Shown here in pieces: positions 16,159-64,000 of a stretch of DNA of 64,000 nt; within the stretch, counting starts at the first letter, position 1, and every line of letters begins with the position of its first letter. The stretch covers positions 1-64,000 of the forward strand of contig NW_003314361.1 in NCBI RefSeq assembly GCF_000143415.4. Direction: 5' to 3'. Source of the DNA: Selaginella moellendorffii (lineage: Eukaryota; Plantae; Lycopodiophyta). A program made the position numbers and the translations under genes. The notes under the pieces were generated by a model. It worked only from the letters and a program-made list of their open reading frames with translations, had not been told where the DNA came from and searched no databases.

Positions 16159-16188
16159 CTCTGCGCGGCGGCTAACCCTTAGTCTTAA

Positions 16189-18459: not shown

Positions 18460-18735
18460 CTCCACGTGGGGCCAGCAAGGGCGCTTGGGGGTGGGCTGGC
18501 CAAGGCGCTTCGAGGCAGGCCAAATTCCTGTGCCAAATGCCTGTGCCAGGCATTTGGTGTGAGCCGGCGAAGGCGATTGGGGGCGGGCCGGTTCGCTGGC
18601 GAACCGGCCCGCCCCCAAGCACCTTGGCCAGCCTGCACCAAGTGCCCAGGCCGGGCACTTGGACTTGGCGCTTGGGGGCAGGCCGGTTTGCCAGCGAACT
18701 GGCACCTACGCCGAGTCCACGCCCCAAAGTCCCCG
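18458..18735. repeat. GC-rich hairpin cluster, probable transposon end (starts CACTC)
   Basis: Perfect 20-bp inverted repeat 18577-18596/18599-18618; further hairpins at 18533-18557 and 18638-18662; lies at the breakpoint of the duplicated gene. Confidence 0.5.
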
Positions 18736-18780
18736 CTTCTTATGCATTTTTAATTTATAATGAGTTTTTTTTTATTTTCA

Positions 18781-36823: not shown

Positions 36824-38737
36824 TCTGAAAGTGTAGAAAAGAAGTTAAGACCATACAAAAAATGATTGGAGAATGGCCTAAATCATAACATACCAAACAA
36901 CCTCAATAGCATGAGGCCACATGCCATTATTCAAACATGCTATTGACACCCACGTGAAATTTCGCATTCACAAAATTGGCATGAGGCCTCATGCCATCTT
37001 GATATACACATAGTTGCAGGCAAGTAAAAACATACATGACAATACTCTAGCTATGAAATTGCAAGGGCCCAAGATGGCATGTGGCCTCATGCCATTTCTA
37101 AATGTGGTCCTAAGCCATTCCATGGTGAATATACCAGGAAGCACAAGTGCCGAATATCAAGAGGAAGCGGTAGCCACACCAAAGACAATGCCGCTCGCAA
37201 CACCGCAACTACTCGTAGCGCCGCTCGCAACACCGCAACTGCTCGTAGCGCCGCTCGCACAAACTGCCACTCGCATAAACTGCCGCTCGCAATGGCGCTC
37301 GCAATGCTGCAACCGCTCGTAGACGCATAAACCACAGCTCACAACGCCGCTTACACAAGCAGCGCTCACTGCGCTCAGCGGAACCAAGAACACGGCGTAC
37401 AAAAATGATAGACCTAGGAATGAGTTCGAGAATTCAAAAATAACACACGCTTGAACGTCACATCAAATCCTCTGACAAACCAGATCTTATGACTCCTCTG
37501 ACAAATTTCAAACTGAGTAGCTTCTAGACTTTGTTGTCGGAAGTTGAACTTTGTCACATCATGTCCTTGCCTCGATCCAGCTGTGCCATGTCAGTGATTC
37601 AAACTTTGCCATGCCATGTCAGCGATCCGCGCCAAGATTATTCGCCGTGTAAAGGAATAATTATGTTGTGTGTGTACGTCCATTTATGGCAATATAAGGC
37701 CACACGCTATTCAAAGAATAATGCTAGTCGAACATTTTTTGGTGCATTTTTGGGTTCAAAATTGCATGAGCCCACACGCTATAAAGTTTACCTGTACCAA
37801 AAATAGAAACAGTTTTATTTACTTGAAAATTTAAGTGGTTGAGGCATTTTTAAACTTACAAACACATGCCCTACTTACATTCCTTTGGTTGCTTAAAATT
37901 CAAAAATATTATAAACCTTTCTTTTTGCATTTTCAATGTTTTCAATTATGGTTTTTGATTTTCGCAGGACCAGCCTAGTAATCTATTTGCATCCCGTCAT
38001 GTTTATAGCTAGCTTTCGTTTGTCCCCTTCGCTAGCCTGAGATACATCTGCTCGGCATCTGCCTCTTACAGCATTTGCCCAGAAAGGGCATCTTTCTTCA
38101 CGCAGCATTTGCCACATGTTTAGGGTTTAGGGTTTAGCAATTCAGTAGCTTGATAAACATGCAAATACAGAACTTGATGCAAAATCCTTTGATATGTCAG
38201 GACCATAAACATATTTCAATAGAGAGGGTCCTTTCATTTCATAACTCCTTACGTAGATCTTGGTGAAACCAAAGTTAGTGAAGTTGGTTTCTTGTGATCC
38301 CGCATCTGATTGTGATGTCCCTTTGCAGTGTCGATGGAAAAGTCAATGCACACTAAACTGTAGAATCTTGGAGCAAAATAACGGTCGGATCTATGGCAAA
38401 TGCCCCTGAAACATTGTAAGGCTCGTGTGGTCTCATGTGGTGTTCGATCGAGATGCTTCTTTGCAGGGTCATCAAGAAGGACATTGTATACCATTCTTTA
38501 TTTAGCTGAACATTTGGCATTTTTTGAAATACAAGATGCTTTGGAATATCCAATCATGCATGGTATAAATATAGTGAGGGTATTAAATGATATCCCAATC
38601 ATGATCTTTCTTTTGGATTTCGCGTGCATGCAGTCCGAGGAATGATGATGTTGCGGATTTCTTTTGGATTTCACGTGCATGCATGCGCGTGGCAATCCAG
38701 AAATTAATGGTGGCGCCTAAGTCCGAAGAATGATGAC

Positions 38738-41700
38738 GTGGCGGGATTACCAACTGTCGTGACATTTCGTGCGTGTGAGGTTAGGTTTTGCATCGTACTC
38801 GCGCTCGCATCGCGCTCCCACTCGCGATCACGCTCACATTCGCGCTCATCTACCTTCTCTACAGGTTTCTCGTGTGCATCGGCGTCCACTCGCGCTTGCA
38901 TCACACTCGCGCTCGCATCACGCTCGTGTGCATCGGCGTCCACTTCAAGACACACCCAGTTTGTAACTTCGCCGCCACCTCCGCCGCCCACTCCACCACC
39001 CACACGCAGCCCACTTGGTGTCCCGGGAGGTTTCAGCGCCACTCTCCAACTGTAAGTGGCAAAGTAGCCTTGCTGCTACGATCCGCTGCACACACAGTGC
39101 ACATTCGCCAGCGAGTCCGGCCTCGATTGTCACGCCTCCATTCGGCTTCAAATGGTAAGTCTTTTAGGCCAAGTAGAAAATGGCATGAGGCCACATGCCA
39201 TTCAGTAGCAACATTGGCATGCACCATTGGGCTCTCGAGTGCAGTCCGGTTACAGATGGCGTGTAGCCTCACGCCATCTTAGGATGCAGCCTCAAGACAT
39301 CTGATGCAGTGGTGAGTGGCGTGTGGCCTCATGTTATTTCCAGCTGCTAGCTTTTCATCTGTTAGCTCTAATTGTTGTGCATTTCTGAACAGGCGAGGAA
39401 TTGCGTTCTTCTTCCAGCCACTGTCAATGTGGATGCAGAGAAGGGGGAGGAGCTCACTAGTTGGACTTTCGGGATGGAAGGCGAGGATCTGAGGCTGTAC
39501 AACACAGATGGTGGGAGAAAAGAATGCATGGGGATCCTCATCCAAGTGACAGACACTCCATGCAGTTCCATGCAAGAATATGGATTGGCACTTGTGGTAG
39601 AGATAGCGTCCGCCTTCAAGATCCACCTTGCACATCCTAGCGGCTTCCCGGAGGGGGGCAACGGCTATGAGGAATTCCTAGAGGGAGATAGGGAGAGGTT
39701 GTCCAGGAGGCCCACAATTTCAAAGACGCTGCGGGTCTATGAAGATCATATGGAATCCACGATCCTCACCTACGACGATGTTCAAAAATTATATTCCAAC
39801 ATTGAGCCGTTGAGAGTGCCTCCAGTTCGCGAAGCGAAGGGGAAGGGGGTCGATCTGGAAACTACCCCAAAGCAGAAAAGGGTGGTCAAGCTCAAGCCGA
39901 CGTCCGACTCTCCTGCTCCAAAAAAGAAGCTACTCGGTGATGCCATTGCCTCGGGTTCGAACACTACACCCACCAAAAAGAAGAGCCGCAAAGAGCAGAA
40001 AGAGCAAGAAGAGGCAGCAAAAATTGTCGCAGATAATAGTACTTGTTACTATTCCAACAAAGTATATACAATCGACGTGAGCCGTATCGACATCCAAAGC
40101 AAATACAACCACAGGCTAGTATCTGATGAGTGGGTGGAGAAACTGAAGCAGAAGATGCTGGCAAGTCCAGTAACACCCGACATCGCAGACGTGATCCCCT
40201 ACTACCGAACAATGAAGGGCGAGACGAGGTTTCCAGACTTGATCAATAGGAAGGTGTTGGACGATCAGAACATTCGGTTCTATGCCGTCTCCGGGCAGCA
40301 TTCTAGCTTGGCGATGCAAGAGATAGTTGTGGATATTATGGTGGGCGAGGAGGTGAAGAAAGTCTTCAAGACAAGAGTTGTCCGCTTGATAAAAGGCAAC
40401 TCGCCCCTCTGATCTATCATATACATCTCCCACGCGCAGAATGTCAAGCAAGAAACGTACTACAAATCGGGTATGCACGAGATATTGGCACGAACACGGA
40501 AGCTCTAGGTTCAACTGAAGAAGCCACAAAAACCAGGACAAGGACATGCACTAGCAACTAGCGCATGGCAGGTAAGCCTCGTTGCATGTGGCATAGCATG
40601 TGGCCTCACGCCATTTCCATTGCAGGAATTCTCGAGTCTTCTCTCGAAAACACTGGGGGTCAATGACACACTCAGCATCTATAACATTCTACTTGCGACA
40701 AAAGTTGTTTTTGACAAATGGGTAGATGTGCTGAGGAAGTACCATGACGGGGAGTTGCTAAACTCAATGGGTGTGGAGGACGGCCAGAAGCCCAATGATT
40801 TGAAGCTCAACGCCTTGCGTTTCTCACGGTCTCTAGACGACGATGACCTTCTGACAGTGGCTAATGCTCTTCTACGTGGTGAGGTAGTCTTCAACAAGAC
40901 CAAAATGACTCCCGGCCATATTGTGACATACGAGGACTTGTGCACGACTCTGAGAGCTCGTGCGCTATTGAAGGATTGGATCTTCGAGCAAGTGGCCGTG
41001 GAGAGGGTGAGCATCGACACCACGCAAGAGATGATGGAAGAGCTGGAGTTGTCAAATGAAGACATCGACGAGTACGTGAAGGGGGCCCCCAAGTTCATCG
41101 ATCTACTGCGGGATGCCACAAAAAGTAAAGCTGAGAAGTTGGATCAGTATCCAAATTTCATTAAGAGGGATGTCGACCGCTGGCTTCAGAAACAGCTTGA
41201 CCCCGCAGCAGAGGCCTATCGAGAACCTTACCGGGTATACGTGAATTTGGATGAGGATCAAAGGTGGAGGAGCATCGTTTCCCGCGGAGATGAGCAGGTC
41301 AAGAACATCTTTTGTGTGATGGACTTCACAAACGAGGAGATCACTCATGCAGACGAAGTCAACTCCATCATTGACTTAATAGTGGGACTTGCAGAGGTGG
41401 AATCTTCAGTCCACTATATGATCTACGACTCCGAATCCTATCACAAGTTCTAAAAGGCCTTGAACGAGGTGAAGGCTTGGTTGAAAGGCAAGGAGATGCA
41501 GGAGATCCATGGGATAATGGTTAAGAAGAAGATACTGACGAATGTCCGCATCTTCACACTCGCCCTTGTTATTGGTCCTACAGCAGAGTGGGACTGGAGT
41601 GACTTCCCAGCTTTGTTCGACAAGGTCGATCGAATTGATCTGAGGGAGGTCAATTTACCCGTGCCTGAGGAACTGAAGACGGCTATGGAGCTTTCGAATC

Positions 41701-44700
41701 CAGAGAAAGTTCCAGGTGCAGCATGGGAAATGCTCAGCTGGGTCTTCAACGCAATAGCGGGTGGGTCACCTGCTTCCAACTCCAAGGGCAAATGCGTTGT
41801 CGAGTACAACTGCGGCGGACTATTCTTTCGAGCTGCACTACTCAAGGGTGTCCCGTGTGTTGCGGTGACAAACTCCATTGAAGAGGTAACTTCAATGGAG
41901 CATATAATTACAGTTGCCAAAGAAAAACAGTATCTTCTCTGCGAACTTGGTGAGTATGCACTTTAAGTTTAAATGTTATCTCACAAGCTCTATATGCAGG
42001 AGCGTGGCCACCCCCAGATGCTGAAACGGCGTTAACAGCTACTGTTGAAGATACCCATGTTGGGCCGAGCTCACAACCTGCACAAGGTAAGGTCACGTGA
42101 GGCCTCACGCCATTTTGATTATAGATCGTTGTGAATATTCAGACACGAGGACTGAAAAGCACACTGGTGGTGCGTCGAAGAAGGACAAACAGACAAGCAA
42201 TAGGAAAAAAGGAGGTACAAATTATATTTGCAATGGCGTGTGGTCTCATGCCATTCCTTGCAAGAGACACTTCTTCAAAGGCAAAACAGGCAAGCACCAG
42301 CCAAGCTCAAACTGACAGTGGTCATAAAAAGCGAAAGCACGTTGGACAGTCGTCGGGATCAGAGGCGTTTGATTCGAAAAGGAAGAAGGGCAACGAAAAG
42401 ATGATAGGTAATGCCTCGCGGTTATGGTGTGTGTGCTCATGCCATTCATTGCAGATCAAGGGCTGAGTGAAAGCAGCCAGTCACCACCTCCTGACTCAGA
42501 TTCCTATGGCGGACTCCCCTTCCCCAATCTCAATGGAGAGGTACAATGGATGAGGGATGCTTTTCAAGTCAGGGCCACGTTTTTCTCATCTCGTCGTCTT
42601 CGAAGGGTGCAAGAACGTGCAGAAACCATGTTAAGACAGTCGGGTGAGGATACGGTCCTAAGTCACGCACTAAAACAGGCTATGGATGTCTTGTATTTTG
42701 AGATGGAGACTCGGCCAGATGATTTTCCCAAGATGGTCCTAGAAGAACAAGCCATCCAGCCTGAGCAGCCTATGGAAGAAATGCAGGAGGGGGATGAGGA
42801 GCCAGAGAAAGATAATGAGCAGGAAGAGCAGAAGGACAAAGAGGAGGACAAAAAAGAGGAGGACGAAGAAGAGGAGGACGAAGAGGACTTGGATGGTCCG
42901 CACAATGGTGACGATCACAATAACGACGATGACGATGATGACGACGATGGCCAGCCTGAGGTGGCCAAAGAACAGCGGAGGAAGGTCATACAAGACAAAC
43001 CATCAGGTAAATAATAGTACATCCATTCCTAACCTTTTACCATTTCTAACATTGTCCATGTAGGTTGCAAAGCAAATGGTAAGTAGAGATTATTCAGTTG
43101 AATTAAGATACAAACTCTAGCCTTTAGTCTCGAGGAAGGATAGTGCCAAGCAAGGGTCGAAACGTATGTCCAATCCTTCAGAATCAGCAGTGCGCCCAAT
43201 AGCAGTTGATGGTAAATACAGTATAGTCGATTCAATGTGCTAATGAGTTTGTTTTTAGTAGCCAGTAGGGAGGATACCATCTCAATCGAAGGGAGATATT
43301 TGGACATGCATATGGATCCGCTAGTGGACTCTACTTGCCTGCAAGAGTCATCAGAGCTGGTGGAGGCTACTATCCATATCAACGCCAAGCAAGCTGACCA
43401 CGCTCCACTTGATGCTGCCCATACCACTGAGTCAATCTTGTCCACGTATCCAACTGACGGTGACCAGGCACCATTGGACCCGCATGAGGCCGCCCCAGTC
43501 GCCGAGCCGGTCGTATCCTCATTTCCAACGGACTCAACGTGTGCTCAATCGTCTGACTACGCGCCATTGGAACCTCCCTACACCGCCCCTACTACCTATT
43601 CGGTCATGTCCACTTTGCCAATGGAGGCACCAGCTGAAATGGCGTGTGATCACACGCCATCGGAACCACCCCATGCCACTGTTGAGCCAGTTGTACCAGA
43701 GTCTACAGCTGAAATGGCATGTGCCCACACGCCATCGGATGCGATTGACCCCACATTGCAGAGGAGAGTATTTCTGCCCTTCACGTTTCCTCGACCAAAA
43801 CCCTCTCAACGACCATCGGGAGCACCATTCGCTAATATTGTAGATGGTAAAATTGACTTGTACCATTTTTTATGCTGACGCATTTCATTTCAGAGTCATA
43901 GCGAAGGTACTGTATCGTTTTTGATCTGAACGGTGTCCTTTTCTCCCATGAGCGTGGCTCGTCCTCGAATGTCACTGCACCCTCCAAAGCCTGCGGTCGC
44001 AAGTTGGTCAAAAGAGACAGATTCACATTAATCACACGGGAGAAACTGCGGGATCTAATAATGACCATGCGACACTTAAAACAGATGGCCGGGTTCAATT
44101 TGCAATTGGGAGTTTGGACATCCATGATGCGCCACAATGCATTAACGTTGCTACAGATGATGCACGATCAGACGCGAGTAATATTACCATTTGACTTTCT
44201 CCTAACGCAGGAGGATTTCTTGACTATGGTCCATGTGAGGGGTAGCAAGCCCATCTTCGTCAAGCCAGAGGCTGTAGTGATGAACCGGACTGCTAGGTCA
44301 AGTGAAATCCTCATCATCGATGACTCGCCGATTAAAACTACAGCGAACACGCACACATATGCAGTGCACCCCATCTCTTGTAGTATGGAAACTAGGGAGA
44401 AGAAACCGTATGTTCTGGGGGACCTTGCAAAACGGCTTAAAGCGATGGTGATAGAGAACCGGCCAGTCCAGGAGGTGGCTGCAGAAATCAACCAAATGGA
44501 AGATGGAACGGTATATCAGAAGCCATTTGATCGGACAGACACCAGTCATCATTTATGGCATGTATATTGTCTAGCCAAGCACTATCCGCATCTCCATAAT
44601 CTGCTCAACCGGATGGGTTCTTCGACCACTGAACATGAGCGTGGACGTATTAGAGAAGAGATGGCATTACTATTGGGTTTAAATCCTGATAGTGTGGAGA

Positions 44701-44756
44701 GTGATGAAATTCCAAGATTATTGTATAGGCGTTGGAGGCAAAAAATAACAGTCTGA
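38738..44756 (+). pseudogene. Multi-exon transposon cargo gene(s): RS/Pro-rich region, ParB-like domain, degenerate MTase-like fold, acidic tract, FCP1/NIF-like HAD domain
   Basis: NHRLVSDEWVEKL...FYAVSGQHSSLAM (ParB-like); KCVVEYNCGGLFFRAALLKG (degenerate motif I); IVFDLNGVL, GVWTSM and ILIIDDSPIK (FCP1-like, ~43900-44756). Short GT-AG introns (40572-40625, 41950-41999); in-frame stops at 40410, ~40506 and 41451. Confidence 0.6.
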
Positions 44757-47700
44757 GATGGCATGTATTTATTTAAAAATTTAACTTATTATGGCATGGG
44801 GTTCCATGCCATTGTATTAATAATAAAAGACAATTCTTTGAGAGGATTTGCATTATACTAGAAGTGTTACAGCATGTTATTGGAAGTCTACGAAGTTGTT
44901 TTATTAATAAGGGGAAAGTAAAGATTGAATGGGGACTTAGGCTCCACCTAGACTCGGAGCAACTGAGCCAATATTAAAAGGATGGAAAGAAATTGGACGA
45001 CGATGACAAGGAGAAGAGAGAGGTGAAGCAGTGGCAGGGGGAGGAGAAGTGATTGAGTAGACATTTCCTTGTTTAAAATAAAATGGCATGTGCCTCAATG
45101 CAGTTGAATTTTGTTATATTTATATACTATATAAAGGTTTGGAAACCTTATTTTACAAGTGGGATAATGACAATTCCCACTTTAACGAAATAGAGCTTCT
45201 TGCGCAAATGCACCCTATGCTCCTCCATATTCTTGCTAAAAACAAGAATATCATCCAAGAAAATCTCCACAAACTCATGAAGATAACGCCCAAATACCTC
45301 CGTCATCAACCGAGTAAATGTGGCCAGTGCATTCGTCAAACTAAACAGCATAACTGTAAACTCAAAATGTCTGAAGTTTGTGTTGAATGCCGTCTTGGAG
45401 ATAAATGCATCATCCATTGCAATCTGATGATATCCACTCCTCAGATCAATCTTGGTAAACACTTGTGTTTCACCAAGCTTGTCCAAGATATCATCCACAC
45501 GTGGCATCGGCATCTTATCCTTCACTGTCTTCTTGTTCAAAGCGCGGTAGTCAATACACATTCGCATTGAACTGTCCTTCTTCTTCACAAGCAAGACCGG
45601 AGCACCAAATGGAGACTTACTTGGCTGAATAAATCCAAACTTAAGTAACTCCTTGACTTGTCGTTGAACTTCTTGCTCCTTCGCATAACTTAACCGAAAT
45701 GGACGCCGGTAAATTGGCCGCGTCCCCGGCTCCAATGTAATCCCATGCTCCACACCTCGTAATGCAATCCATGAGGAAGTTCAGATGGAAAAACATCAGA
45801 AAACTCATCAAGTACATCCCATATTGCTGCTTCTCCCCCACACGTGCCTTGGTCTGCAAGTAACTCAAAGTAAACTCGAAAGTGTTTTTCCATTACGACA
45901 AGCCTACTTCAAAGATATAGCAGAGAACATAACAACTGGTGGCTGAACGCCCTCGCCAAACCACACATCTTTAATGCCACCATACTCTAGCGAGATACGC
46001 TTAATGCTCCACTTTATCTCTGGATCCACCTTCACCAACCATGGCATCCCAAGAATGAGATCCACACGATGGATATCCGTGAGATAAAAAGTCTCCACAA
46101 GTGTGGTTTTGCCAACCAACACTTCCAGCCCCTCGACACAAGCATCGAAATGCTGAGCAGAGGTAGCTGCACCCTCCACTGTGTATGGAAGAATGCCACG
46201 TGTGACCAGGCCATGCTCCGCAACAAACTTTGCCGAAACAAAGTTGTCATCGCTCCCACTATCCAATAAAATCCGCACTGGACCGCCATGGAACATGCCC
46301 TCCAGCATTAAAGCTGATTCACGCGTATCCTCAAGTTCCATCTTGTTCCACACACAGTTGAGTTGACAAGCAACGGTTGAAAGTCACTTCCTCCGACCGG
46401 AATGGTCGTTCTCCTCATCCTCGCGCTGCAAAGTTTGCAACTTTTTAGTATCTGACTTACCGTGAGAAAAAGATTGGCCATTCTTCTTTTCCTGCTGCTT
46501 GTTCTTCAACTGCGGACAATCAGCCTTGGAGTGTCCAAGTTCACCGCAATGATGACAACCCTGTTTATAATTCTTCACAAAGAACTTCTGCTTCTTGGAC
46601 CTCTTTGTATCTGAGGTAGTCACCACCAACTTCAACTTGTGATGCTTGTTCCCATCCTTGTGTCCACGGTGATCATCATGACGATTCTCGATAGAAGGAC
46701 TCCGCGAACGCTTGCGAGACTTGTGCTTATCATTGTCAAGTCGACGAGCTGCATCAAAGAGCTCCTCCAAACTCTTTGTAGGCTAAGAATGACACAAGTG
46801 TTGCCGCATGCTCTCACTATGTAGGCCATCAATGGAGTAGGACTTGTTCTGATCCGGATCCTTCGTTGGAACACGACTAATCAAGCGAGTAAGCTTCTCA
46901 ATATAATCCCCGAGCGTCATTTTCCCTTGCTGGAAATGGCGAAGTTTTATACGAGCATTCTCCACATCGTAATGAGGGGCAAAACGTAAATGGAAAGTAG
47001 CCTCAAACTCATCCATGGTAAACACTGGTGGTTTCTTATCCGCAACATGGGACTCCTTAAGCCAATTCCACCATCGAAGACCCGCATCACGCGAAACCAT
47101 CGGAATAGCCACTAAAGCCTCTGCATCTAGAGTTCCTCTAGCAACCAAGAACTTCTTCACATTGGCTAGCCAAGCGAGACACTCGTCCACACCACCATCA
47201 CCGGAAAAAGTTGGAATTTTGAGTTGATCTACCAAAGAAGGCTTACTTGGAGCGTTACCCTGTCCAGCCTCGAGTGCCTCAACACGCCCACGCATGGTAT
47301 CCATCATGCCATGCATCTCGTCTTGCATCTCTTGCTGATTTTGATTAAGGCCTTGCAGCTCATGAACCACATCTTGAATGGTCCAAATCTCCATAACTTC
47401 GCCGGCACCATCGTTGGCACCACCATCGATAATAGGATTCCAGCGTTCAGCTTGGTCGGCCATCGCAACCAACTCCTTTGATACCAATGTTATGATCTGG
47501 CACAAAAAGACAAAAATCTAGTTGCCCTAGACTATGCTACGCCACCTCTTGAGGTTCCTCACCACCCAACCACCCCCGAGCTACCTCAAAAGCTCCACTG
47601 CGCCGCCGCTCCACTGTGAGCCCTAGGGTAGGTTAAGTCCCTTACCTTAACATGCTTTAATATACCCTTGAGCCTCCCTTTGACCGACATTGACCACGTA

Positions 47701-49361: not shown

Positions 49362-52300
49362 TGTTAGGCACTAGCTTTGACCATGTGGTCAACGTCGGTC
49401 AAAGGGAGGCTCAAGGGTATATTAAGGCATGTTAAGGTAAGGGACTTAACCGACCCTAGGGCTCACAGTGGAGCGGTGGCGCATTGGAACTTTTGAGGTA
49501 GCTCGGGGGTAGTTGGGTGGTGAGGAACCTCAAGAGGTGGCATAGCATAGTTTAGGGTGATTAGATCTCTGTCTTTTTGCGCCGGATCATAACATTCGTA
49601 TTAGAGAAGTTGGTTGTAATGGCCAACCAAGCTGAACGTTGGAATCTTATTGTCAATGGTTTGTTCAGTTGCCAATGGTGCCACGAAGCTCCGGAGATTT
49701 GGACCATTCAAGATGTAGTTTATGAGTTGCGAGCCCTTAATTGAAATTAGCAAGAGATGCAAGATAAAATGCTTGGCATGATGGATACCATGCGTGAGCG
49801 TGTTGAGGCACTTGAGGCTGGATGGGGTAGCGCTCTAAGTAAGCCTTCTTTGGTAGATTGACTCAAGATTCCAACTTTTTCTGGTGATGGTGGTGTGGAC
49901 GAGTGTCTCACTTGGCTAGCCAATGTGAAGAAGTTCTTGGCTGCTAGGGGAACTCTAGATGCAGAGGCTTTAGTGGCTATTCCGATGGTTTTGCGTGATG
50001 TGGGTCTTTGATGGTGAAATTGGCTTAAGGAATCTCGTGTTGCGGATAAGAAACCACCAGTGTCTACCATGGATGAGTTTGAGGTTGCTTTCCATTTATG
50101 TTTTGCCCCTCATTACGACGTGAAGAATGCTCATATAGAACTTCGACATTTCCAGCAAGGGAAAATGACGCTCAGGGACTATATTGAGAAGATTATTCAC
50201 TTGATTAGTCGTGTTCCAATGAAGGATCCAGATCAAAACAAGTCCTACTTCATTGATGGCTTACATAGTGAGAGCATGTGGCAACACTTGCGTCATTCTC
50301 AGCCTACAAAGAGCTTTTTGATGCGGCTCGTCGACTTGACAATGACAAGCACAAGTCTCGCAAGTGTTCGCGGAGTCCTTCTATCGAAAATTGTTGTGAT
50401 AATTGCCGTGGACACAAAGATGGGAATCACACCACAAGTTGATTGACATCTGGCTGGTCTAATTTGCTCCAAAGTCCAACTCTGTTGGTTGGCTAGTGTA
50501 ATCTCCTGAGTTTGGACTTCCCGGGAGGTCACCCAGCCCACTACCATTCAAACCCAAGGACGCTTAACCCCAAATATCCCAAGACCCTTAACGGATTGGA
50601 AAAGGGGGTGCAATCTTATTCATAAGCCCTTTCCCTCTATATTTGAACCCTATAGATCGTCTCTCAAGTTGTTCGCTTTGGTTACTTACAATCCACCACG
50701 CTTCCCTGCAAGTTCACGCCCTCGTAAACGGAAGCTGAGAGTTGCAGCTCTCCCGAGAGCCTCACTCTCTTGACACCCTACCCCTCAGGTCAAGCCCAGC
50801 GGGAGCAAACTAGACCAGCCAGATGTCAATCAACATGTGGTGTGATTCTCCTAGCCAACTAACAGAGTCGGACCCGAGACCCCCCTCTGATACCAAATGT
50901 AAGCTCCTGAGTTTGGACTTCCCGGGAGGTCACCCAGCCCAGTACTATTCAAACCCAAGGACACTTTAACCCCAAATATCCCAAGACCCTTAACCGATTG
51001 GAAAAGGGGGTGCACTCTTATTCATGGGCCCTTTCCCTCTATATTTGAACCCCATGGATCGTCTCTCGAGTCGTTCCCTTTGGTTACTTACAGCTAGGGG
51101 AATCACACCAACCAACAGATATCGCGGATATTCATCGTGTGGATCTTATTCTTGGGATGCCATGGTTAGTGAAGGTGGATCTAAAGATAAAGTGAAGTAT
51201 TAAGTGCATCTCGCTGAAGTATGGTGGCGTTAAAGATGTGTGGTTTGGTGAGGGCGTTCAACCACTAGTTGTTATGCTCTCTGCTACATCTTTGAAGTGG
51301 GCTTGTTGTAATGGAAAAGCACTTTCGAGTTACTTGATGTTTGTTCGTGACTTGGGGGACCAAGGCACGTGTGGGGGAGAAGCAACAATGTGAATGTGTA
51401 TTGACTACTGTGCTTTGAACAAGAAAACAATGAAAGATAAGATGCTGATGCTACGTGTGGATGATATCCTAGACAAGCTTGGTGAAGCATGAGTGTTTAC
51501 CAAGATTGATATGAGGAGTGGATATCATCAAATCTCAATGAATGATGCATCTATCTCCAAGACGGCATTCAATACGAGCTTCAGACATTTTAAGTTTACA
51601 GTTATGCCGCTTGGTTTGACGAATGCACCAGCCACATTTACTCGGTTGATGACGGAGGTATTTGGGCGTTATCTTCATGAGTTTGTGGAGATTTTCCTGG
51701 AAGATATTCTTGTTTTTAGCAAGAATATGGAGGAGCATAAGGTGCATTTGTGCAAGGTTCTTTTGTTACTCCGAGACAGCAAACTTTATGCGAATAAAAG
51801 CAAATGTGAATTTGCAAAGTCGGAGTGGAATATCTAGGCCATATTATGACATCTAAGGGTGTCAAGACGGATCCAAGGAAAGTGGCTATGGTGGAAAACT
51901 AGCCTACACCAACTATAGTGGCCGAGTTGCGCAGTTTTCTTGGTATGGCTAATTACTACTGACGTTTCCAGCATAAGTTTGCAGAGGTGGCTATTCCTTT
52001 GATGCGGTTGTTATGCAAGAATGTGCCATTTGAGTGGAAGAAGCCACAAGAGGAGAATTTTGTGGCACTGAAACGATTGTTGAGCGAGACTCCAGTGCTT
52101 CGCATTGTTGATCCATCGAAACCTTACAAGGTGACATGCAATGCGAGTGGTTATGCACTGGGAGGAGTTCTCATGCAAGAGGGATAGCCTATTGCATATA
52201 AGAGTCAAACTTTGAATTCTGCAGAGCAACGCTATTCCATATATGAGCAAGAAGTACTCTCTATTGTTCATACTTTGCGAACGTGGCGGCACTATCTTTA

Positions 52301-54139
52301 TGGTGCAGTGTTCGTGGTGTTAACAAATCACAAACCACTTGTGTATCTTTTCACACAGAAGGAGTTGAACACTAGGCAAGCTCGTTGGATGGTCAAACTC
52401 ATGGAGTTTGGGGAGTTTCCTATTGAGCATTGTCCGGGAAAATCAAATGTGGTGGCAGATGCTTTATCTCGTGTTCATCATGTGACGATGTTACGACAAC
52501 AATTTTGTCATCATTTGAGTAAGGTGGTCAGCGAGTTTGGGCAGTTGGTTGAGCATGCTCAGGCTCAGGATGCTGAGGTGGCCTCTTTGCGAGACTAGAT
52601 GGAAGCCCCTTTCTCATTGGTGGATGGGATTCTCTATTACAATAGCCGTGTGTATTTGCCACGGGTGGATGTGTTAATTACTCAAGTTTTATTCCACTAT
52701 CATGATCGTCCAAAGGCCGGTCATTTTGGGGGGAAGAAGACATATGAGTTGATTAAGCGCAACTTTTATTGGAGGAATATGAAGGCTGATATCCTCAAGT
52801 ATTGTAAATCATGAGAGCTTTGTCAGCGGGTTAAGGTGCCACGGGAGAAGCCGGGGGGACTTTTGCAACCTTTACCTATTCCTTAGAGCCGTTGGTGTAA
52901 TATCTCTATGGACTTTATCACTTGTTTGCCACGAACACAGAGGCAAAAGGAGCAAGTATGGGTAATAGTGGATCGGTTGACGAAGTATGTGCGGTTGGTG
53001 GCTTTTTGGAAGATTGTCACTGCCTCAAACTTGGCTACAGTTTATTTGGAGAAGGTTTTTCCTGATTTTGGTTTGCCAAAGGACATCATTAGTGATCGAG
53101 ATTCAAAGTTCACTAGTGGATTTTGGAAAAGCTTTGCAAATGCTATGCAAGTGACTTTGAAACTCTCGAGTGGAGATCATCCTCAGACGGATGGGCAAAC
53201 CGAGCGTGTGAATTAGGTGGTGGAGGATATGCTACATTGTAGTATTGGTCAAAGGCAAGGACAATGGGATCTATATCTTTCGTTGGTGCAATTTGCTTAC
53301 AACAATAGCCAACACAGCCGAACCAAGCTAAATCCTTATTTTGCCATGTTTGGAAGGCATCCTCGAACAACGGTGGAGTTGAGATTGCATTTGAGTAAGG
53401 ATGTTCAAGATAAGCTTGATTCCGAGGCAACTAATCTGGCCACAGAACTTGATGAGATTCTGGTGGTGTGCAAATGAAATTTGCAAGGAGCTCAGGATAG
53501 AGTGGAGAAATTTGCCAATGAGCATCGCCAATTCCGGGAATATAAGGTGGGTGATCTTGTCTTTGTGCGAGTGATCTTTCCGTCAAGTGAGCGGTGGAAC
53601 ACCTTGGTGCCTTTTTGGACAAGGAAGAGTGATAAACTTTCCCATTGATATGCTAGTCCATATGAAGTGCTAGAGCGCATTGGTAAAGTAGCTTATTGGG
53701 TGCGGCTGCCAGCTGGGGTGAAAATTCATCCGGTATTTTATGTCAGCCAGTTGAAAAGTGTACTATCTCGGAGTGACGGGCCCAATGCCTCCTTGATGTA
53801 TATGGTTGTGGAAGATGGACCAGGAGCTTGAGTAGGGTTCCCTAGAAAGGGTGATCACTAGTACAACTCATCCTTGGGACAAAGACTTTGTTGGGGGGGA
53901 AGAACTTGTTAAATGCCAGCCTTGAACATGTGGTCAACGTTGGTCAAAGGAAGGCTCAAGGGTATATTAAGGGATGTTAGGGTAAGAGACTTAACCGACC
54001 CTAGGGCTCACAGTGGAGCGGTGGTGCAGTGGAGCTTTTGAGGTAGCTCAGGGGTGGTTGGGTGGTGAGGAACCTCAAGAGATGGCGTAGCATAGTCTAG
54101 GGTGACTAGATCTGTATCTTTTTGTGCCGGATCATAACA
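49362..54139 (+). mobile_element. Decayed Ty3/gypsy LTR retrotransposon (family A, copy 2) with internal deletions
   Basis: LTRs at 49362-49594 and 53907-54139; TSD TATGG/CATGG; gag, RT, RNase H and integrase fragments closely match copy 1. Confidence 0.92.
50497..51092 (-). mobile_element. TRIM (miniature non-autonomous LTR element, 596 bp)
   Basis: TGTAA...TTACA LTRs at 50497-50690 and 50898-51092; PBS TGGTATCAGAG at 50885-50895; TSD GCTAG on both sides. Confidence 0.92.
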
Positions 54140-56419: not shown

Positions 56420-57064
56420 TTGGTAATATATCGTCCGTTAAACAAAGTGACAATTCTGGATGTGTACCCTCTTCCTCACACTGTTGATCTCTTGGATCGT
56501 CTGGGGCAAAGTCGTTAGTTCACCAAGCTAGATCTTGCTTCTAGGTACTGGCAAGTATCGATGGCTGAAGAAGATATTTTTAAGACTATTTTTCATACAC
56601 CATTTGATTTGTATGAGTTCTTGGTGATGCCGTTTGGTTTGAACAATGCTCCAACAACTTTTTATTGGATGATGGACGAAGTTCTTTGCGATATGCCCAA
56701 GGTGATTGCTGACTTCATTGATGATGTGTTGATCCACTCGAAGGGGATATGGGGGAGCACATTCGTGATGTTTGTAAAGTGTTAGATTGGGTATGGGACA
56801 TTGGTTTAAAGTTGAAGCAGTCGAAGTGCATGTTTGGGTCTAAGGACACGACTTATCTTAGGTACTGTATTTCTTATGAGGGTTTGCAAGTTGATCTTGA
56901 CAAACTTGTGGTTGTTCTAAAATTCCCTACTCCAAAGTGTGTGAATGATATGCAGTGCTTTCTGGGCAAGGTGCAGTATTTCAGTCGTTTTGTGGATTAT
57001 CTTTTTGATTGCACTACCCTGTTGCAAGCATTGTTGAAGTTATCAACATCATTTTCCATTTGGT
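56420..57064 (+). pseudogene. Old Ty3/gypsy RT fragment (target of the young element)
   Basis: [35 protein letters not shown] and FIDDVLI, with a frameshift. Confidence 0.85.
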
Positions 57065-57854
57065 TGTAAGCCACAAATTTTTCCTTTCCAATTTGCCAGC
57101 TTACCTCGTCTATCCGTCCAACACTGCCTTGGCTTTTGCTAAGTTCCCTTGCCAAGGTTCTCGCCTATGGTACCAGCTCCTACTTGGTTTCAGCTACTCA
57201 CTGCACGAGCAACAGAGTGTTAGCCATCCTTCCACGGATTCCCAAATCACTCCCAATCCCCCTCCCCGGGTTAGACTGGACTTAAGGTTCGGCTACACTC
57301 CCCGCAGGCACAAGCAGCCAAGCACACCAAGCTTCCAGGTTCCTAACATCCCTTGGTACCACAAGACTTGATCATGGGACCCTCTAAATCCCAAGTCTTG
57401 AGTGCAACACTAGCTTCGGGACGCCGGGGCGAAACACCGTGGCCTAACGGCCCGGTATGGGTACCTCTCGCCCCCCACTTCCATCCCGAAGGAAGGCCCA
57501 AGCCCCTAGGAAGGGCGAGGACCAATGAGCCGCATGGTACTCAAGTGGGGCACCACTCCACATGAGCCGGGAGCACCGCAATCGGTTTCCCTTTCGGGAG
57601 TGGGAGCTGCTCTTGAGCACTTCCTTGGATGGCCCCTCCGGCACCAGCCAAGTCCATGCTCACTCCCACCCAAGGCCCCTTAGTCCCAGTCCCAACCTCA
57701 AGTCGGTTTGGAAGCCCAACTGGAGAGTCCCTTCAAAACTGGTTCCTGGACCTCACTATCCCTACTATACTTTTGGAACCCCCTGCAGCCCCCCCCCCCT
57801 GGGGGACGCACGCTTTGGGCTTTCACCCCTTGACCCATATTAGTATTTGGACTT

Positions 57855-58120
57855 AGTCTCTGGCTCGATCTCGGATCCGATTTCGGATCCGACTTCGGAT
57901 TCGGTCTCGGACTCGATCGCGGACTCGATCTCGGACCTGATCTCGGGCCCGACCTCGGACTCGACTTCGGACTCGGTCTCGTACCCGATTTCAGATCTCG
58001 GACTCCGTCTCGAACTCGGTCTCGAACTCGGACTCGAACTCGGTCCCCGAGTCGGTCTTGGACTCGATTCCGGACTCTATCTCGAACTCGGTCCTAGAGT
58101 CGGTCTTGGACTCGATCTTT
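57855..58120. repeat. Degenerate 6/12-bp (CTCGGA/CTCGAA) array inside the LTR
   Basis: Direct reading of the sequence. Confidence 0.8.
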
Positions 58121-58615
58121 GACTTGGTCCCATCCGATGAACTCTTTGTCATTTTGGTCATGCTTTCGGGGTTCCCTTAGCCTACGACACCTCGGCGAGT
58201 TGGTTCCTTACAACTCCACCACCCATAGAAGAAGTTTGATGCCCACATCGAACGTCTCTTTTTTATCCTATGACTTGTTGACCATGTCTCCGGGGGCATC
58301 CTCCCACTTAGCGGTGTGCCTAAGTTAACCTCCCCAGCCAAGAGCTCATGACAACGGAATATAGGTGTCCCTATACTCCTCCCCTCACCACGCCCTAGTA
58401 TGGGGTCGGGACTTGAACCCAGCCTTGCTTTACTAGGGGGTTGGGACTCGAACCCAACCTCCGTAGAATACGTCTACGGTTTCGACATCCCCGCAGGGAG
58501 TCGGGCGTAGCTCCCTACGCCTGGTCGACCTAGCTAACCCATGCTAATTAGCTTACCTTTGATGCGCCATCGGGTCCCAACATATGCCATTGCTCAACTT
58601 CTCAAATTGATACTT

Positions 58616-61600
58616 TTAATTGAACTTTGCATAAGTACATAGAGTTCTGCCATGCAGAAATTCCTCCACTAGATCTCGCGCGTTCGCTAGGTTCTCCTCC
58701 GGTTCCCATGTTGCTTCGCAGTGTGGAAATCCTTTCCACTTCACATGGAACTCTCTCACCTCGCGTCCTTGTCGCTTGCTCTTGCGCGCATTGAGGATGG
58801 CCTCGACTTCGTATTCCTCCTCCCCTTGGATAACCTCAGGTAAAGGTCTTACTTGGTCCTTGCGAAGCGGATCCTCAAAATACGGCTTGAGTAAGTTCAC
58901 GTGGAACACGGGATGCATCTTCCCCATCTCTCGAGGAAGTCGGAGACGGTAAGCCACTTTACCGATTCGAGCCTCAATCTCGTAAGGCCCCGCGAACCTG
59001 CTTAAGGAACTCAAGATCAATTCATTTGCAGGAATACATGCATTTTTACCTTTGGGTCAACTTCCGGCTGATCCCACTTGGTAGCCTGAGGTTCTTGGTG
59101 TTCAGCCACACCTTCTCCCCAGCTTGGAACTCCACATCTCGACGCTTTTGGTTCGCGTACTTAGTTTGCCTTTGTTGAGCCCGTTCCAAGGAATCCCTCA
59201 CTAGATTCCAAAAGTTGAGTCTTTCCGCCGTGAATGCCTCCACTGCGGGTAACTCTCCATGATACTCGGCCACGCCGAGTTCCACAGGATCTTCAATAGC
59301 TCGCCCATTGATGACTTCCCATGGACTCACCCCGATGCTCGAATGTGGTGAGTTGTTATAACACATTTCCGCAAGTCCCAAATGACTTACCCAGTCGGTC
59401 TGGTCTCCCGAGACATAGCATCGCAAATAATCCTCCAGCTGCCTATTCACCCTTTCCGTTTGTCCGTCTGTCAAGAAGTGTTAGTGCCATCAATCTTGAC
59501 TCAATACTCATTACCTGTCTGTGGGTGATAGGCCGTGCTGAATTTCAACTTGGTGCAATATAGTTCCAGGAATGTTCTCCAGAACTTATTGGTGAAGATG
59601 TTATCTCGATCTGAGATAATCTCTTCCGGCCTTCCCCGCACTCGAACCACTTGTTCGAAGAACAGCTTCGCCACACCTTCCGCATCCACATCCGTTGTGG
59701 TGGGTATGAAATGTGCCATCTTTGAAAATCGGTCCACCACCACGAATATCGCATCGAACCCCTCGCTTGGGGGTAGTCCCGTGATGAAGTCCATCGTGAG
59801 ACATTTCCACGGACGATCTGGAATGGGGATGCTTTGCAACAAGCCCCCACTAGCCTTCGTCACGGCTTTGACCTGCTGACATGTTGGACATGTCTTTACA
59901 TAGTCTTGGACGTCCTTAGCCATAGCTGGCCAGTGATACTTCCTTTTGAGTAAGCCCATCGTCTTGGGCACTCCGCCGTGTCCCGCGAGAGGTCCGTCAT
60001 GACACTCTTCCAAGGCTACTTTCCTTAGTTCCCCTTCTGGAACATACACCCTCGTTTGCTTGTAATATATGAGTCCGTTGCGTTCCGCATAGCCCGTTTT
60101 CTCTTCCGTTGGCAGCTCACCTCTCTGGTGAGCTTCCCGCGCCTCCAGATTCCTCAGCAACACTTCTTGTGCTAGACCATCACTCTCGTATGCGGTCCGC
60201 ACATCGTCCCAAAAGGTTGCTGTCGCGCTAGATATCGCCAACTTCAAGCTTGCTTTTCGACTTAGCGCATCTGCCACGATGTTGCTCTTCCCAGGCTTGT
60301 ACAGGATCTCGCAATCAAACTCGGCCAAAGCATTGGCCCACCGACCTTGTTTTCCCCTTAGGTCGGGCTGTGACAAGAAGTGTTTCGTTGCCACATTGTC
60401 CGTGTAAACCTTGAAGTGTCTCCCAAGGTAGTGTCGCCACTCCTTGAGCGCCTTGACCACCGCAAACAATTCCTTCTCGTGGGCAGGCCACTTCCGTTGA
60501 GCCTTGTCCAGCTTCTTCGAGAAGAACGCTACTGGATGGTTGTCTTGCTTCAAAACTGCGCCCAACGCAAAGTCCGAAGCATCCGTGTCTACCTCAAAGT
60601 CCTTACCAAAGTCTGGTAATGCCAACACCGGAGCCTTCCTCAACTTCCCTTTGAGGTGGACGAATGCCGCCTCGCATTCCGCTGTCCATACCATCTTCCC
60701 TTTTCCTGTTTGGTCCGTTAAGGGCAGGGCTACTCTCGAATAGTGTCTGATAAACTTTCGATAGTAGTTGCATAGCCCCAGGAACGCCCTCAACTCATGT
60801 ACATTCGATGGTCGTTCCCATTCTTGGATCGCTTGGACCTTCTCCGGGTCCACCTTGAGCCCGTCCTGGCCCACCACATGCCCGAGAAACTTTACCTCTT
60901 GTTGAGCAAAGTCACATTTGCTCTCTTTAGCATACAGTTTGTGTTCCCTTAGTTTCTCAAACACCTTCGCCAAGTGTTCGGCATGCTCCTCTAGCGTCTC
61001 GCTATAGATCAGGATGTCGTCAATATAGACGACCACGAAGCGATCCAGATAGGGTACAAAGATGTGGTTCATCAACGCCGAAAATGTTGCCGGCGCATTG
61101 CACAGCCCAAAGGGCATCACCAAAAACTCAAAGCTCCCATACCTCGTTTGACAGGTTGTCTTCTCGACATCTTCCTCAGCTACCCTGATCTGGTAGTATC
61201 CTGACCTTAGGTCAATCCTCGAGAAGTATTTTGCCTTTCCCAACCTATCGAACAGGTCCTCGATCCTTGGCAAAGGGTACTTGTTCTTCTTGGTATACTT
61301 GTTGAGCAACCGATAGTCTATGCACATGCGCATAGATCCATCTTTCTTTTTCACAAATAGCACCGGCGCCCCATACGGCGACTTGCTCAACCTAACATAC
61401 CCTTTGTCCACCAACTCCTCTAGTTGGCTCTTGAGCTCCTTGAGTTCTTTTTCGTTCAATCGATAGGGTGGACGAACCACCGCCTCAGCACCCTCGACCA
61501 GCTCAATCTTATGTTTTATCGGTCGTGCGGGGGGCAACCCTGCCGGTAGCTCCTCTGGCATGGTATCCTGGAATTGGTCCAGCACCTGCTGGATCACTAA

Positions 61601-63388
61601 AGGTACTTCTTCCGTTCTTGTCTTTTTGTCACTCTTCACCGAGAGTAAGCACAAAAAGGCTGCCTTAGTTCCTTTAGTGAGTTGTCCTCTCGTGGACACC
61701 AGGTTTAAGCATGACTCTTTGGCCTTGCTTTGCCCTACCTTTAGATCCTGGGCCTCCACCCTAGATCTTCTTCCTTGGGCATTCGCCAATACCACAAGGT
61801 TCCTACCTTGTCCATGCAGGGCTACCACGAACCGATTAAACCAATCCATTCCGAAGATCACGTCAAATCCCGCCATGTCAAAGACAGTGAAATCCATGTC
61901 CACTTTCCATGTCCCCACTTCGACTCTCGCTTGTCGAAGTATCTCATCGGTGCTTTGGCTACCCTGAACAAACTCTATAGTCCTTGGTTCGCCTAACCGC
62001 TGCACTGTTAGTCCGGCTTGCCGGACTATGTCTGCAGCCACAAAATTATCCGAAGCACCCGTGTCAATAAGGATCTTAACAAAGCTACCTCCGAGCTTCC
62101 CTCGGAGGGCTAGTAGATGTCGCGAACGACTCTCTACCAAAGTTGCTCGTGTAATGAGTAACTTTGAGTTAGGGACTGGATCACATACCTCAGTTTGGAC
62201 TTCACCCGACTTGATGGCCATATTGGCTCTGGCCTTCTTCGGGTAGGGACATTCCCTCGAGAAGTGTCCCACTTCGCCGCAGTTGTAGCATACGTTGTTG
62301 CCCACGCTGCTATATGACTTGACCTTCTTATCCGTGGGTTTGTCTTTTTTCGCTTGACTTCCCCACGTACTCGCTCGCTGGCCACCGGCTTTGCCTTTCC
62401 GGAACCCCGAGGACTCATTCTTAGAGAAACTCTTCTTGAATTTCCCCTTGTTATATGTTCCCCTCGGTTTGGCCCCTTTGTGAAATGTGGATCCCGACCC
62501 CGTCGTGTTCCCCTTTCGCAGGTTATCGTTGAAATGCACCTTGATGGCCGCATCCAACGCTTCCTTGTAGTTGGTCGGGTTCCAGCGCATCACCTCACCG
62601 CGAGCCCAGGTTTGCAAACCTGATATAAAGGCATGGAACGCATCCATATCCCCCATGTCCGTGACAAGTATCCTCTTTGCCATGAACCCATTCACATATT
62701 CCTGGATGGTTCCAGTCTGCTTCAGCCTACTCAACTCATCTCTCAGATGCAGAGTGGCATTCGGAGGAACGTATGTCGCGCGGATCCTCGCCTTCATCAT
62801 GTCCCAGGTGGCCACCGGTCCTTCGTTGGCCTCCGTTGTTCTCCACCAAGACTTGGCATTATCTGCCAAGTATGGTTTTGCACATGGGACCTTCTCCGAG
62901 CTCGGTAACCGCAACGCTCGGAAGTAGTCCTCCATATCGTAAAACCAATCCTCCACAACCTTATAGTCGTTCACTCCCTTGAACACCGGTGGGGGCTTTG
63001 GTTTGTACTTGGGAACTGCCTGAGGGACTGATTCCACTTCGGTCTGTTCGACCTTGTCTGGTTTTGCCTCAGTCCCTGCCGAAGGGTCCGCACCTTCTGC
63101 GCTGCCAGCATCCGCAGTCTTTCGCTTTTTCTTCCGCTTCTCGTCACGCTTTAACTTGCATACGAGAGTCTCCAGCAGGGTATTGGTCTGTGCCAACTGT
63201 CCTTCTAGCACGTCCAATCGAGCCTTGGACGACCGAACCTCGCCACCGGACTCCTGTTTGGAAGTTTCCTCACTGGAGTCCTCCTCATGCAAGGATTCCT
63301 CATCCATAGCCTCTTGTTCAACCGGAGGCTCCAGCTCCGGCGGAGGTTCCGTCTCCGCCTGGGTTCGCTTACGCCCTGCCCTTGCCAT
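58616..63388 (-). CDS. Gag-Pol polyprotein (Gag-CCHC, protease, RT, RNase H, integrase, chromodomain), 3 exons, 1557 aa
   Basis: Motifs LIDTGAS, YIDD, HHCC zinc finger, GPY/F and chromodomain YEVEAIL..VKWKGF..TWEP. Exons 63388-59515, 59467-59050 and 58997-58616 splice in frame (4674 nt). Confidence 0.9.
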
Positions 63389-64000
63389 CTCCCAGCAATC
63401 CGCCTCTATCCTTCGCTAGAACTGAGATAAAGGCTCCGATACCAAATTGTAAGCCACAAATTTTTCCTTTCCAATTTGCCAGCTTACCTCGTCTATCCGT
63501 CCAACACTGCCTTGGCTTTTGCTAAGTTCCCTTGCCAAGGTTCTCGCCTATGGTACCAGCTCCTACTTGGTTTCAGCTACTCACTGCACGAGCAACAGAG
63601 TGTTAGCCATCCTTCCACGGATTCCCAAATCACTCCCAATCCCCCTCCCCGGGTTAGACTGGACTTAAGGTTCGGCTACACTCCCCGCAGGCACAAGCAG
63701 CCAAGCACACCAAGCTTCCAGGTTCCTAACATCCCTTGGTACCACAAGACTTGATCATGGGACCCTCTAAATCCCAAGTCTTGAGTGCAACACTAGCTTC
63801 GGGACGCCGGGGCGAAACACCGTGGCCTAACGGCCCGGTATGGGTACCTCTCGCCCCCCACTTCCATCCCGAAGGAAGGCCCAAGCCCCTAGGAAGGGCG
63901 AGGACCAATGAGCCGCATGGTACTCAAGTGGGGCACCACTCCACATGAGCCGGGAGCACCGCAATCGGTTTCCCTTTCGGGAGTGGGAGCTGCTCTTGAG

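Follow-up and report, generated by a model that had tools for sequence, protein, structure and literature searches.

Introduction

A single round of copying should be enough to strip an LTR retrotransposon of its sense-strand introns, and among plants, Ogre and EVADE are the only notable exceptions named in the available part of a 2025 review (PMC12786077). Ogre, a Ty3/gypsy element of the Tat lineage from pea and Medicago, keeps a non-coding intron in its DNA that is spliced from a subset of the transcripts to give the full polyprotein, and this intron is a single spacer of 274 bp on average, located between the protease and the reverse transcriptase (RT) (PMC6317226). In the copia elements EVADE, BARE1, and Drosophila copia, a gag RNA is generated by an intron whose removal eliminates the protease and creates a stop just past Gag (PMC5580714, PMC3735527); these introns are found in coding sequence, and the unspliced RNA encodes the whole polyprotein (PMC5580714). 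In the accessible sections of an Arabidopsis survey, no conserved gag splicing of the copia kind is reported for Ty3/gypsy elements (PMC5580714). In foamy viruses, the packaged genome is not the message for the Pol enzymes, which are translated from another, spliced mRNA; the splice passes over gag so that Pol is made separately, and pol has no small introns (PMC7828637). Penelope-like elements retrotranspose without losing their introns, one of which lies in the 5' UTR and spans the boundary of the terminal repeat, and the significance of this retention was called unknown in the part of the study consulted; they are, however, not LTR elements and use other priming and integration (PMC8557442). 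Splicing-dependent pol with an unspliced genome (Ogre, foamy virus), gag splicing (copia, BARE), and intron retention (Penelope) are, hence, already known. Introns inside the integrase of an LTR retrotransposon were not found reported in the literature searched, a search that had the repeat databases (Repbase, Dfam, and REXdb) and most subscription journals outside its scope, where the introns described below may already be annotated.

Here, we analyzed 64,000 nucleotides of the lycophyte Selaginella moellendorffii (contig NW_003314361.1, positions 1 to 64,000; hereafter, the window), which contain on the minus strand a retrotransposon with two introns in its integrase. This element shares with Ogre an intron kept in the DNA and a splicing event needed for the full polyprotein, but it is a chromovirus, and its integrase is interrupted twice, by introns of about 50 nt, one of them between the catalytic D and E. 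Unlike the Ogre arrangement of a protease/RT intron in a non-chromovirus, protease and RT are continuous here, and a chromodomain is present. As in the copia elements, a 157-nt intron removes the protease and creates a stop just past Gag; in contrast to them, the unspliced RNA cannot encode an active integrase. Like the foamy virus, the element would make its Pol enzymes from a spliced mRNA and package another RNA, and like the Penelope-like elements, it would keep introns through retrotransposition. An initial annotation of this DNA had set the element apart from known splicing, and this was too sharp a line, because Ogre is nearer than was implied, its splicing being also required for the full polyprotein, and the copia-like gag intron is found in this element too.

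Results and Discussion

Architecture and Identity of the Element

The element is bounded by a 3' LTR of 1148 nt (57065..58212, minus strand, as all the features of the element) with the ends TGTAAG and CTTACA and by the 3' half of a 5' LTR (63448..64000), which is cut by the window end and also finishes in CTTACA. Both LTRs were identical over the 554-nt overlap, suggesting a young copy, though half of the LTR is covered; the earlier claim that the LTRs look identical thus stands for about half of the 1148 nt, and the comparison includes neither target-site duplication. The 3' LTR holds a tract of 11 G and a 12-nt tandem array of about 22 copies (57864-58118), which is open in several frames. 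A 13-nt primer-binding site (PBS) was recognized from the sequence at 63432..63444, and the polypurine tract at 58214..58224, immediately ahead of the 3' LTR. The PBS is of the tRNA-Met type, which we take to be that of the plant initiator tRNA.

The coding region is composed of three pieces. Exon 1 (59515..63388) has 1291 whole codons, is stop-free, and, according to Pfam, encodes Gag with a CCHC knuckle, protease, RT, RNase H, the integrase zinc finger, and both catalytic Asp. Exon 2 (59050..59467; 418 nt) contains the catalytic Glu at 59456-59454 and the remainder of the integrase core, and exon 3 (58616..58997) contains the GPY/F-SH3 module and the chromodomain at about 58813-58658, matched by Pfam SH3_Tf2-1 and Chromo, respectively. 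The domain order Gag-PR-RT-RH-INT with a C-terminal chromodomain identifies a Ty3/gypsy chromovirus.

Without splicing, the window element shows open reading frames of 3885, 318, and 309 bp, and its length is 7531 bp, assuming a full-length 5' LTR. These values were compared with those of SM1-Galahad from S. moellendorffii, reported by Novikov et al. in 2012 with an ORF1 of 3885 bp/1295 aa that ends inside the integrase, extra ORFs of 316 and 309 bp with the chromodomain in the last one, LTRs of 1076/1146 with TG..CA ends, poly-G tracts of 11-25, a 13-nt tRNA-Met PBS, a length of about 7.5 kb, and hundreds of copies with about 95% identity (PMC3350952). ORF1 and the 309-bp, chromodomain-containing ORF3 agree exactly, and the poly-G tract and the 13-nt tRNA-Met PBS are shared; near matches are ORF2 (318 versus 316 bp), the LTR (1148 versus 1146), and the total length (7531 versus about 7500 bp). 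The element is, therefore, likely SM1-Galahad, judged by measurements against the published description and not sequence against sequence. The published account divides that family into three ORFs and gives it 'no intact copy', no uninterrupted family copy being found in the parts of the study available, and its sister SM2-Galahad has a single uninterrupted ORF of 1577 aa; 'intron' and 'splic' have no occurrences in the main text (PMC3350952). We conclude that this is a known family whose structure was misread, i.e., it is spliced and not broken into three ORFs, and other families annotated without an intact copy may likewise be intact but spliced.

In a FastTree phylogeny built without a named Galadriel reference, the element was placed on a long branch within a group, with a support of 99, that includes angiosperm single-ORF chromoviruses. 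The same placement was given to Galahad in the published study (PMC3350952). Decayed copies of other gypsy elements were observed at 30400-32150 (-), 45148-47517 (-), 50018-53900 (+), and 56519-57069 (+), and no such introns were present in those checked. The last of them is an RT fragment, and the insertion site of the element is immediately next to this fragment or within it.

The Integrase Introns

The initial annotation proposed two GT-AG inserts within the integrase, and both were confirmed on the minus strand, with their coordinates. Intron 1 (59468..59514; 47 nt, phase 1) has a CTAAC branch-like motif 14 nt from its end, and intron 2 (58998..59049; 52 nt, phase 2) has a weaker TTGAT motif and a second possible acceptor 3 nt upstream. 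When the three exon pieces were joined, no stops were found, and the total was 1557 codons, as had been predicted. The unspliced ORF, on the other hand, ends at 1295 aa, four codons inside intron 1, ahead of the catalytic Glu in exon 2 and the chromodomain in exon 3. Both introns were poorer in GC (0.38 and 0.35 for introns 1 and 2, respectively) than the exons (0.52), and only 2.3% and 0.04% of the coding windows of equal size were as AT-rich as intron 1 and intron 2. When each break was filled with an X, exactly 35 positions separated the second catalytic D from the E. The alignments of relatives (242 proteins; HSPs, not proteins, were counted) crossed site 1 free of gaps in 228/229 spanning HSPs and site 2 in 129/148. 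For comparison, the retained introns of S. moellendorffii average 106 nt in the portion of the report consulted (PMC5310277).

The published multi-copy consensus breaks at the same codon, 1295 aa (PMC3350952), and this is independent evidence, from the available text of that study, that the inserts are family-wide. We are highly confident that the integrase introns are real, family-wide, and required.

Splicing in Transcript Data

Eight of the 24 listed sequencing runs were mapped (X1, X4, X5, X15, X17, X18, X23, and X24). X15, X17, and X18 are presumed to be RNA and X1 to be DNA, the kind of X4 and X5 is unrecorded, and X23 is RNA on record. The search for runs containing the element listed none recorded as RNA, a blank that speaks neither for nor against splicing. 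One 1083-nt contig of X15 skipped both integrase introns exactly, and in X18, which belongs to another study, both introns were skipped in two contigs. In X23, 10 reads mapped (about 12% of the run was read), and the sole read that reached intron 1 skipped it, and its strand is as expected, provided that the library is stranded; by bin-depth arithmetic, which is ambiguous here, one partly mapped read possibly enters intron 2 unspliced. One contig of X17 retained intron 1. Thus, both integrase introns are precisely removed in RNA-type data, and the initial proposal that the inserts are spliced was borne out. They have the features of U2 spliceosomal introns, namely GT..AG ends, an AT-rich interior, precise removal in RNA-type data, and presence in DNA-type data, with most run kinds being presumed and X23 being RNA on record.

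A variant at 59085 was common to X15, X17, and X18, and it accounted for 0.12% of the X1 depth. An apparently single haplotype was, therefore, seen both with intron 1 (X17) and without it (X15 and X18), which argues for splicing and not for an intron-less paralogue. That this rare haplotype was common to three RNA-type runs also suggests that one or a few loci supply most of the transcripts. The unspliced contigs of X17 could be DNA carry-over. Expression was very low, i.e., 10 of 9.2 million reads in X23, and X24, with 0 reads, provides no test of splicing. Two nonsense variants (window 59150 and 59303) appear to be present in exon 2 of the copy that is expressed in X18, and with such low expression, the splicing observed may stem from a dead or read-through copy.

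Ribosomal frameshifting or read-through, which are common in retroelements, would cross the breaks with no need for splicing, but this explanation is largely refuted, because each of the inserts is about 50 nt long, contains a stop, and shifts the frame, because collinearity with relatives requires their omission, and because exactly these inserts are missing from RNA-type contigs.

Retention in DNA and Selection on the Spliced Frame

Next, we looked at the DNA-type run X1 and at X4 and X5, of unrecorded kind, where contig depth does not equal copy number. Neither the 47-nt nor the 52-nt skip was present in X1 (11,979 contigs), X4 (239), or X5 (31), with contigs being able to drop rare forms, and 13 other joints were listed for X1, with depths of 2 to 292. 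One 596-nt contig of X5 crossed both introns free of gaps. The inserts are not unique to this copy, as contigs about 85% identical to the window span intron 1 (X1 record 8) and intron 2 (X4 record 12), and the break in the published consensus coincides with that seen here. Within the 1-kb stretch, a single small indel was listed, and it falls in intron 2. DNA-type contigs, hence, keep both integrase introns, and the retention of the introns by the copies, a point raised in the initial annotation, is supported, since no intron-less DNA contig is among those listed.

A separate observation is one X1 contig (depth 96) without 842 nt (59676-58835, minus strand), a gap with GT..AG ends and a 4-nt junction repeat. 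It could be a microhomology deletion or a copy of a cryptically spliced RNA, and in the latter case it could mean that spliced RNA sometimes gets copied.

Among the variants shared by the copies in exons 2 and 3, 16/17 were synonymous in the spliced frame (9/10 in exon 2 and 7/7 in exon 3), when 34% would be expected for transitions (p ~4e-7); the test used 40 listed variants of 243, with shared variants defined as those at 2-95% of the X1 depth, and many are linked, so the p value overstates their independence. The window copy itself carries several private amino-acid changes. The excess of synonymous variants shows that the spliced integrase frame is under purifying selection. Since translation of the unspliced RNA would end before exons 2 and 3, the spliced product must have been of importance in those lineages that went on to spread.

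Leader and Gag/Protease Introns

RNA-type data contained four GT-AG skips in the element, two of them well supported, and the leader, gag, and integrase splices were each scored apart, with none linked on a single molecule. The leader intron (63422..63487; 66 nt, GT-AG) has its donor in U5, so that the final 40 nt of the LTR are lost with the skip, as is the entire PBS. It was found in one contig of X15, the run that also splices both integrase introns. This contig departs from the window at 63423, and its loose end fits the sequence from 63490 onward with 2/30 mismatches, versus 23/30 for the straight continuation. One contig of X17 appears to pass through the leader unspliced. As the evidence is one contig of one run, a genomic copy with a 66-nt deletion could be an alternative source. 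As a lead only, folding of three stretches placed both splice sites of the leader intron in predicted stems (z -2.2; 4 of 200 shuffles), and the donor was predicted to pair with the LTR terminal inverted repeat.

The optional gag/protease intron (62032..62188; 157 nt, GT-AG, phase 0) was observed as a joint in one contig of X17, with 30 nt on the short side, and two contigs of X15 stop exactly at its borders, 62033 and 62189. Its removal would generate a predicted 401-aa Gag that ends past the zinc knuckle, with the protease active site deleted. This intron is a candidate answer to the question of how a single-ORF Ty3/gypsy element makes an excess of Gag.

Relatives and Origin of the Introns

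No close relatives were found, the best full-coverage identity being 56% among the matches listed. An HPQT-type motif was present in 95 of 120 listed matches, and none of them runs off into unrelated sequence at that point. In 145 further matches, 124 continue normally, 18 are without the motif, and 3 are of other kinds, with none being intron-like. Metagenome contigs provided three distant loci and viral contigs none; all three loci were uninterrupted at site 1, and two of them (L001 and L002) were so at site 2 as well. The other gypsy family of the window has no insert at either intron site. As no listed relative is broken at site 1, gain of the intron in this lineage is the simplest reading, and on these sequence comparisons, the gain is dated no further than 'not in these relatives'. 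The intron-less sister SM2-Galahad offers a reference against which the gains are datable.

The initial annotation noted a GACAG direct repeat flanking intron 1 and took it as a hint of an insertional origin. The repeat is present but is weak evidence of such an origin, as part of it comes from the splice consensus and the duplication test gave p = 0.065; the junction repeats are of 5 nt and 4 nt and are partly expected from that consensus. An origin by tandem duplication was considered and not accepted (p = 0.065 for intron 1 versus the upstream exon, and p of at least 0.5 in three other tests). Introns 1 and 2 showed no resemblance to each other (p = 0.15), and in a check for introners, neither recurred within the 64-kb window or the three metagenome loci.

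A Proposed Division of Labor by Splicing

The element has hundreds of copies, and its integrase is split by two introns; thus, the genome RNA cannot encode its own working integrase, and this protein needs other molecules. We consider it probable that the element is a high-copy chromovirus with spliced, DNA-retained integrase introns that divides jobs by splicing, with the unspliced RNA as the genome, the spliced RNAs as messages, and the leader intron as the gate. RNA that keeps the gag intron and loses both integrase introns would encode the 1557-aa Gag-Pol, and RNA that loses the gag intron would supply surplus Gag, as in copia. Only the RNA that escapes the spliceosome would keep the PBS to be primed and copied, and new insertions would inherit all the introns. 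Once leader splicing has taken away the PBS, an RNA that went through the spliceosome would have no site for priming, and this likely explains how the introns survive reverse transcription. With the leader intron acting as a gate, the integrase introns would be heritable and near cost-free, so they may have been gained without a regulatory benefit.

The initial annotation had proposed that splicing separates the packaged genomic RNA from the integrase mRNA, or sets the integrase dose. We infer the former, with the PBS-removing leader intron as a candidate mechanism, and the latter is possible. The major donor of foamy virus likewise lies upstream of the PBS. The introns of this element would be simple sequence marks that tell packaged from translated RNA. 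A more far-reaching version is that the splicing of four introns controls the entire life cycle of SM1-Galahad, the PBS-deleting leader barring spliced RNA from replication, so that the element would be a gene-like unit able to gain and keep introns even in the integrase active site; the packaged RNA would encode only a catalytically dead integrase, and this could limit copy number. We regard this version as tentative, with the doubts slightly outweighing the support.

It is also conceivable, but unlikely, that the introns are real and required, and yet are kept by a different gate, such as a separate promoter, capping, or an export or packaging bias, the leader splice being incidental. In BARE, the RNA that is translated and the RNA that is packaged form separate pools (PMC3735527), and Cer1 exports its unspliced RNA via its own protein (PMC10309623), according to the available parts of these studies, and the leader splice is backed by one contig. 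The ends of the leader skip, however, are strong and canonical, and what it takes out is exactly the U5 end and the PBS. In addition, the ORFs listed for the element include no apparent accessory gene for export.

Finally, the introns might be passengers, with an intron-less master copy supplying the integrase and the host spliceosome acting on dead copies. The apparently defective copy expressed in X18 and the private amino-acid changes of the window copy would fit this explanation, the uninterrupted SM2-Galahad (PMC3350952, as far as its available text goes) could act in trans, and contigs can miss a rare form. Nevertheless, we find it very improbable, because, among the mapped copies, purifying selection acts on the exons that follow the introns, no intron-less contig was found although deletions at single-copy depth appear, and the accessible text of the 2012 study reports no uninterrupted copy of the family (PMC3350952).

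Other Features of the Window

Near-identical tandem gene copies were observed at 13796-16203 and 17094-18749 (both minus strand), with a P-loop-like motif in one piece and no Pfam match in the two pieces scanned. A cluster of DUF7869 ORFs at 34004-36844 (-) and a run of unassigned ORFs at 39372-44756 (+) that ends in a match to a NIF-like phosphatase presumably belong to a large DNA transposon. In addition, the remnant of a LINE-type ORF2 with a zf-RVT domain was found at 4296-6581 (+).
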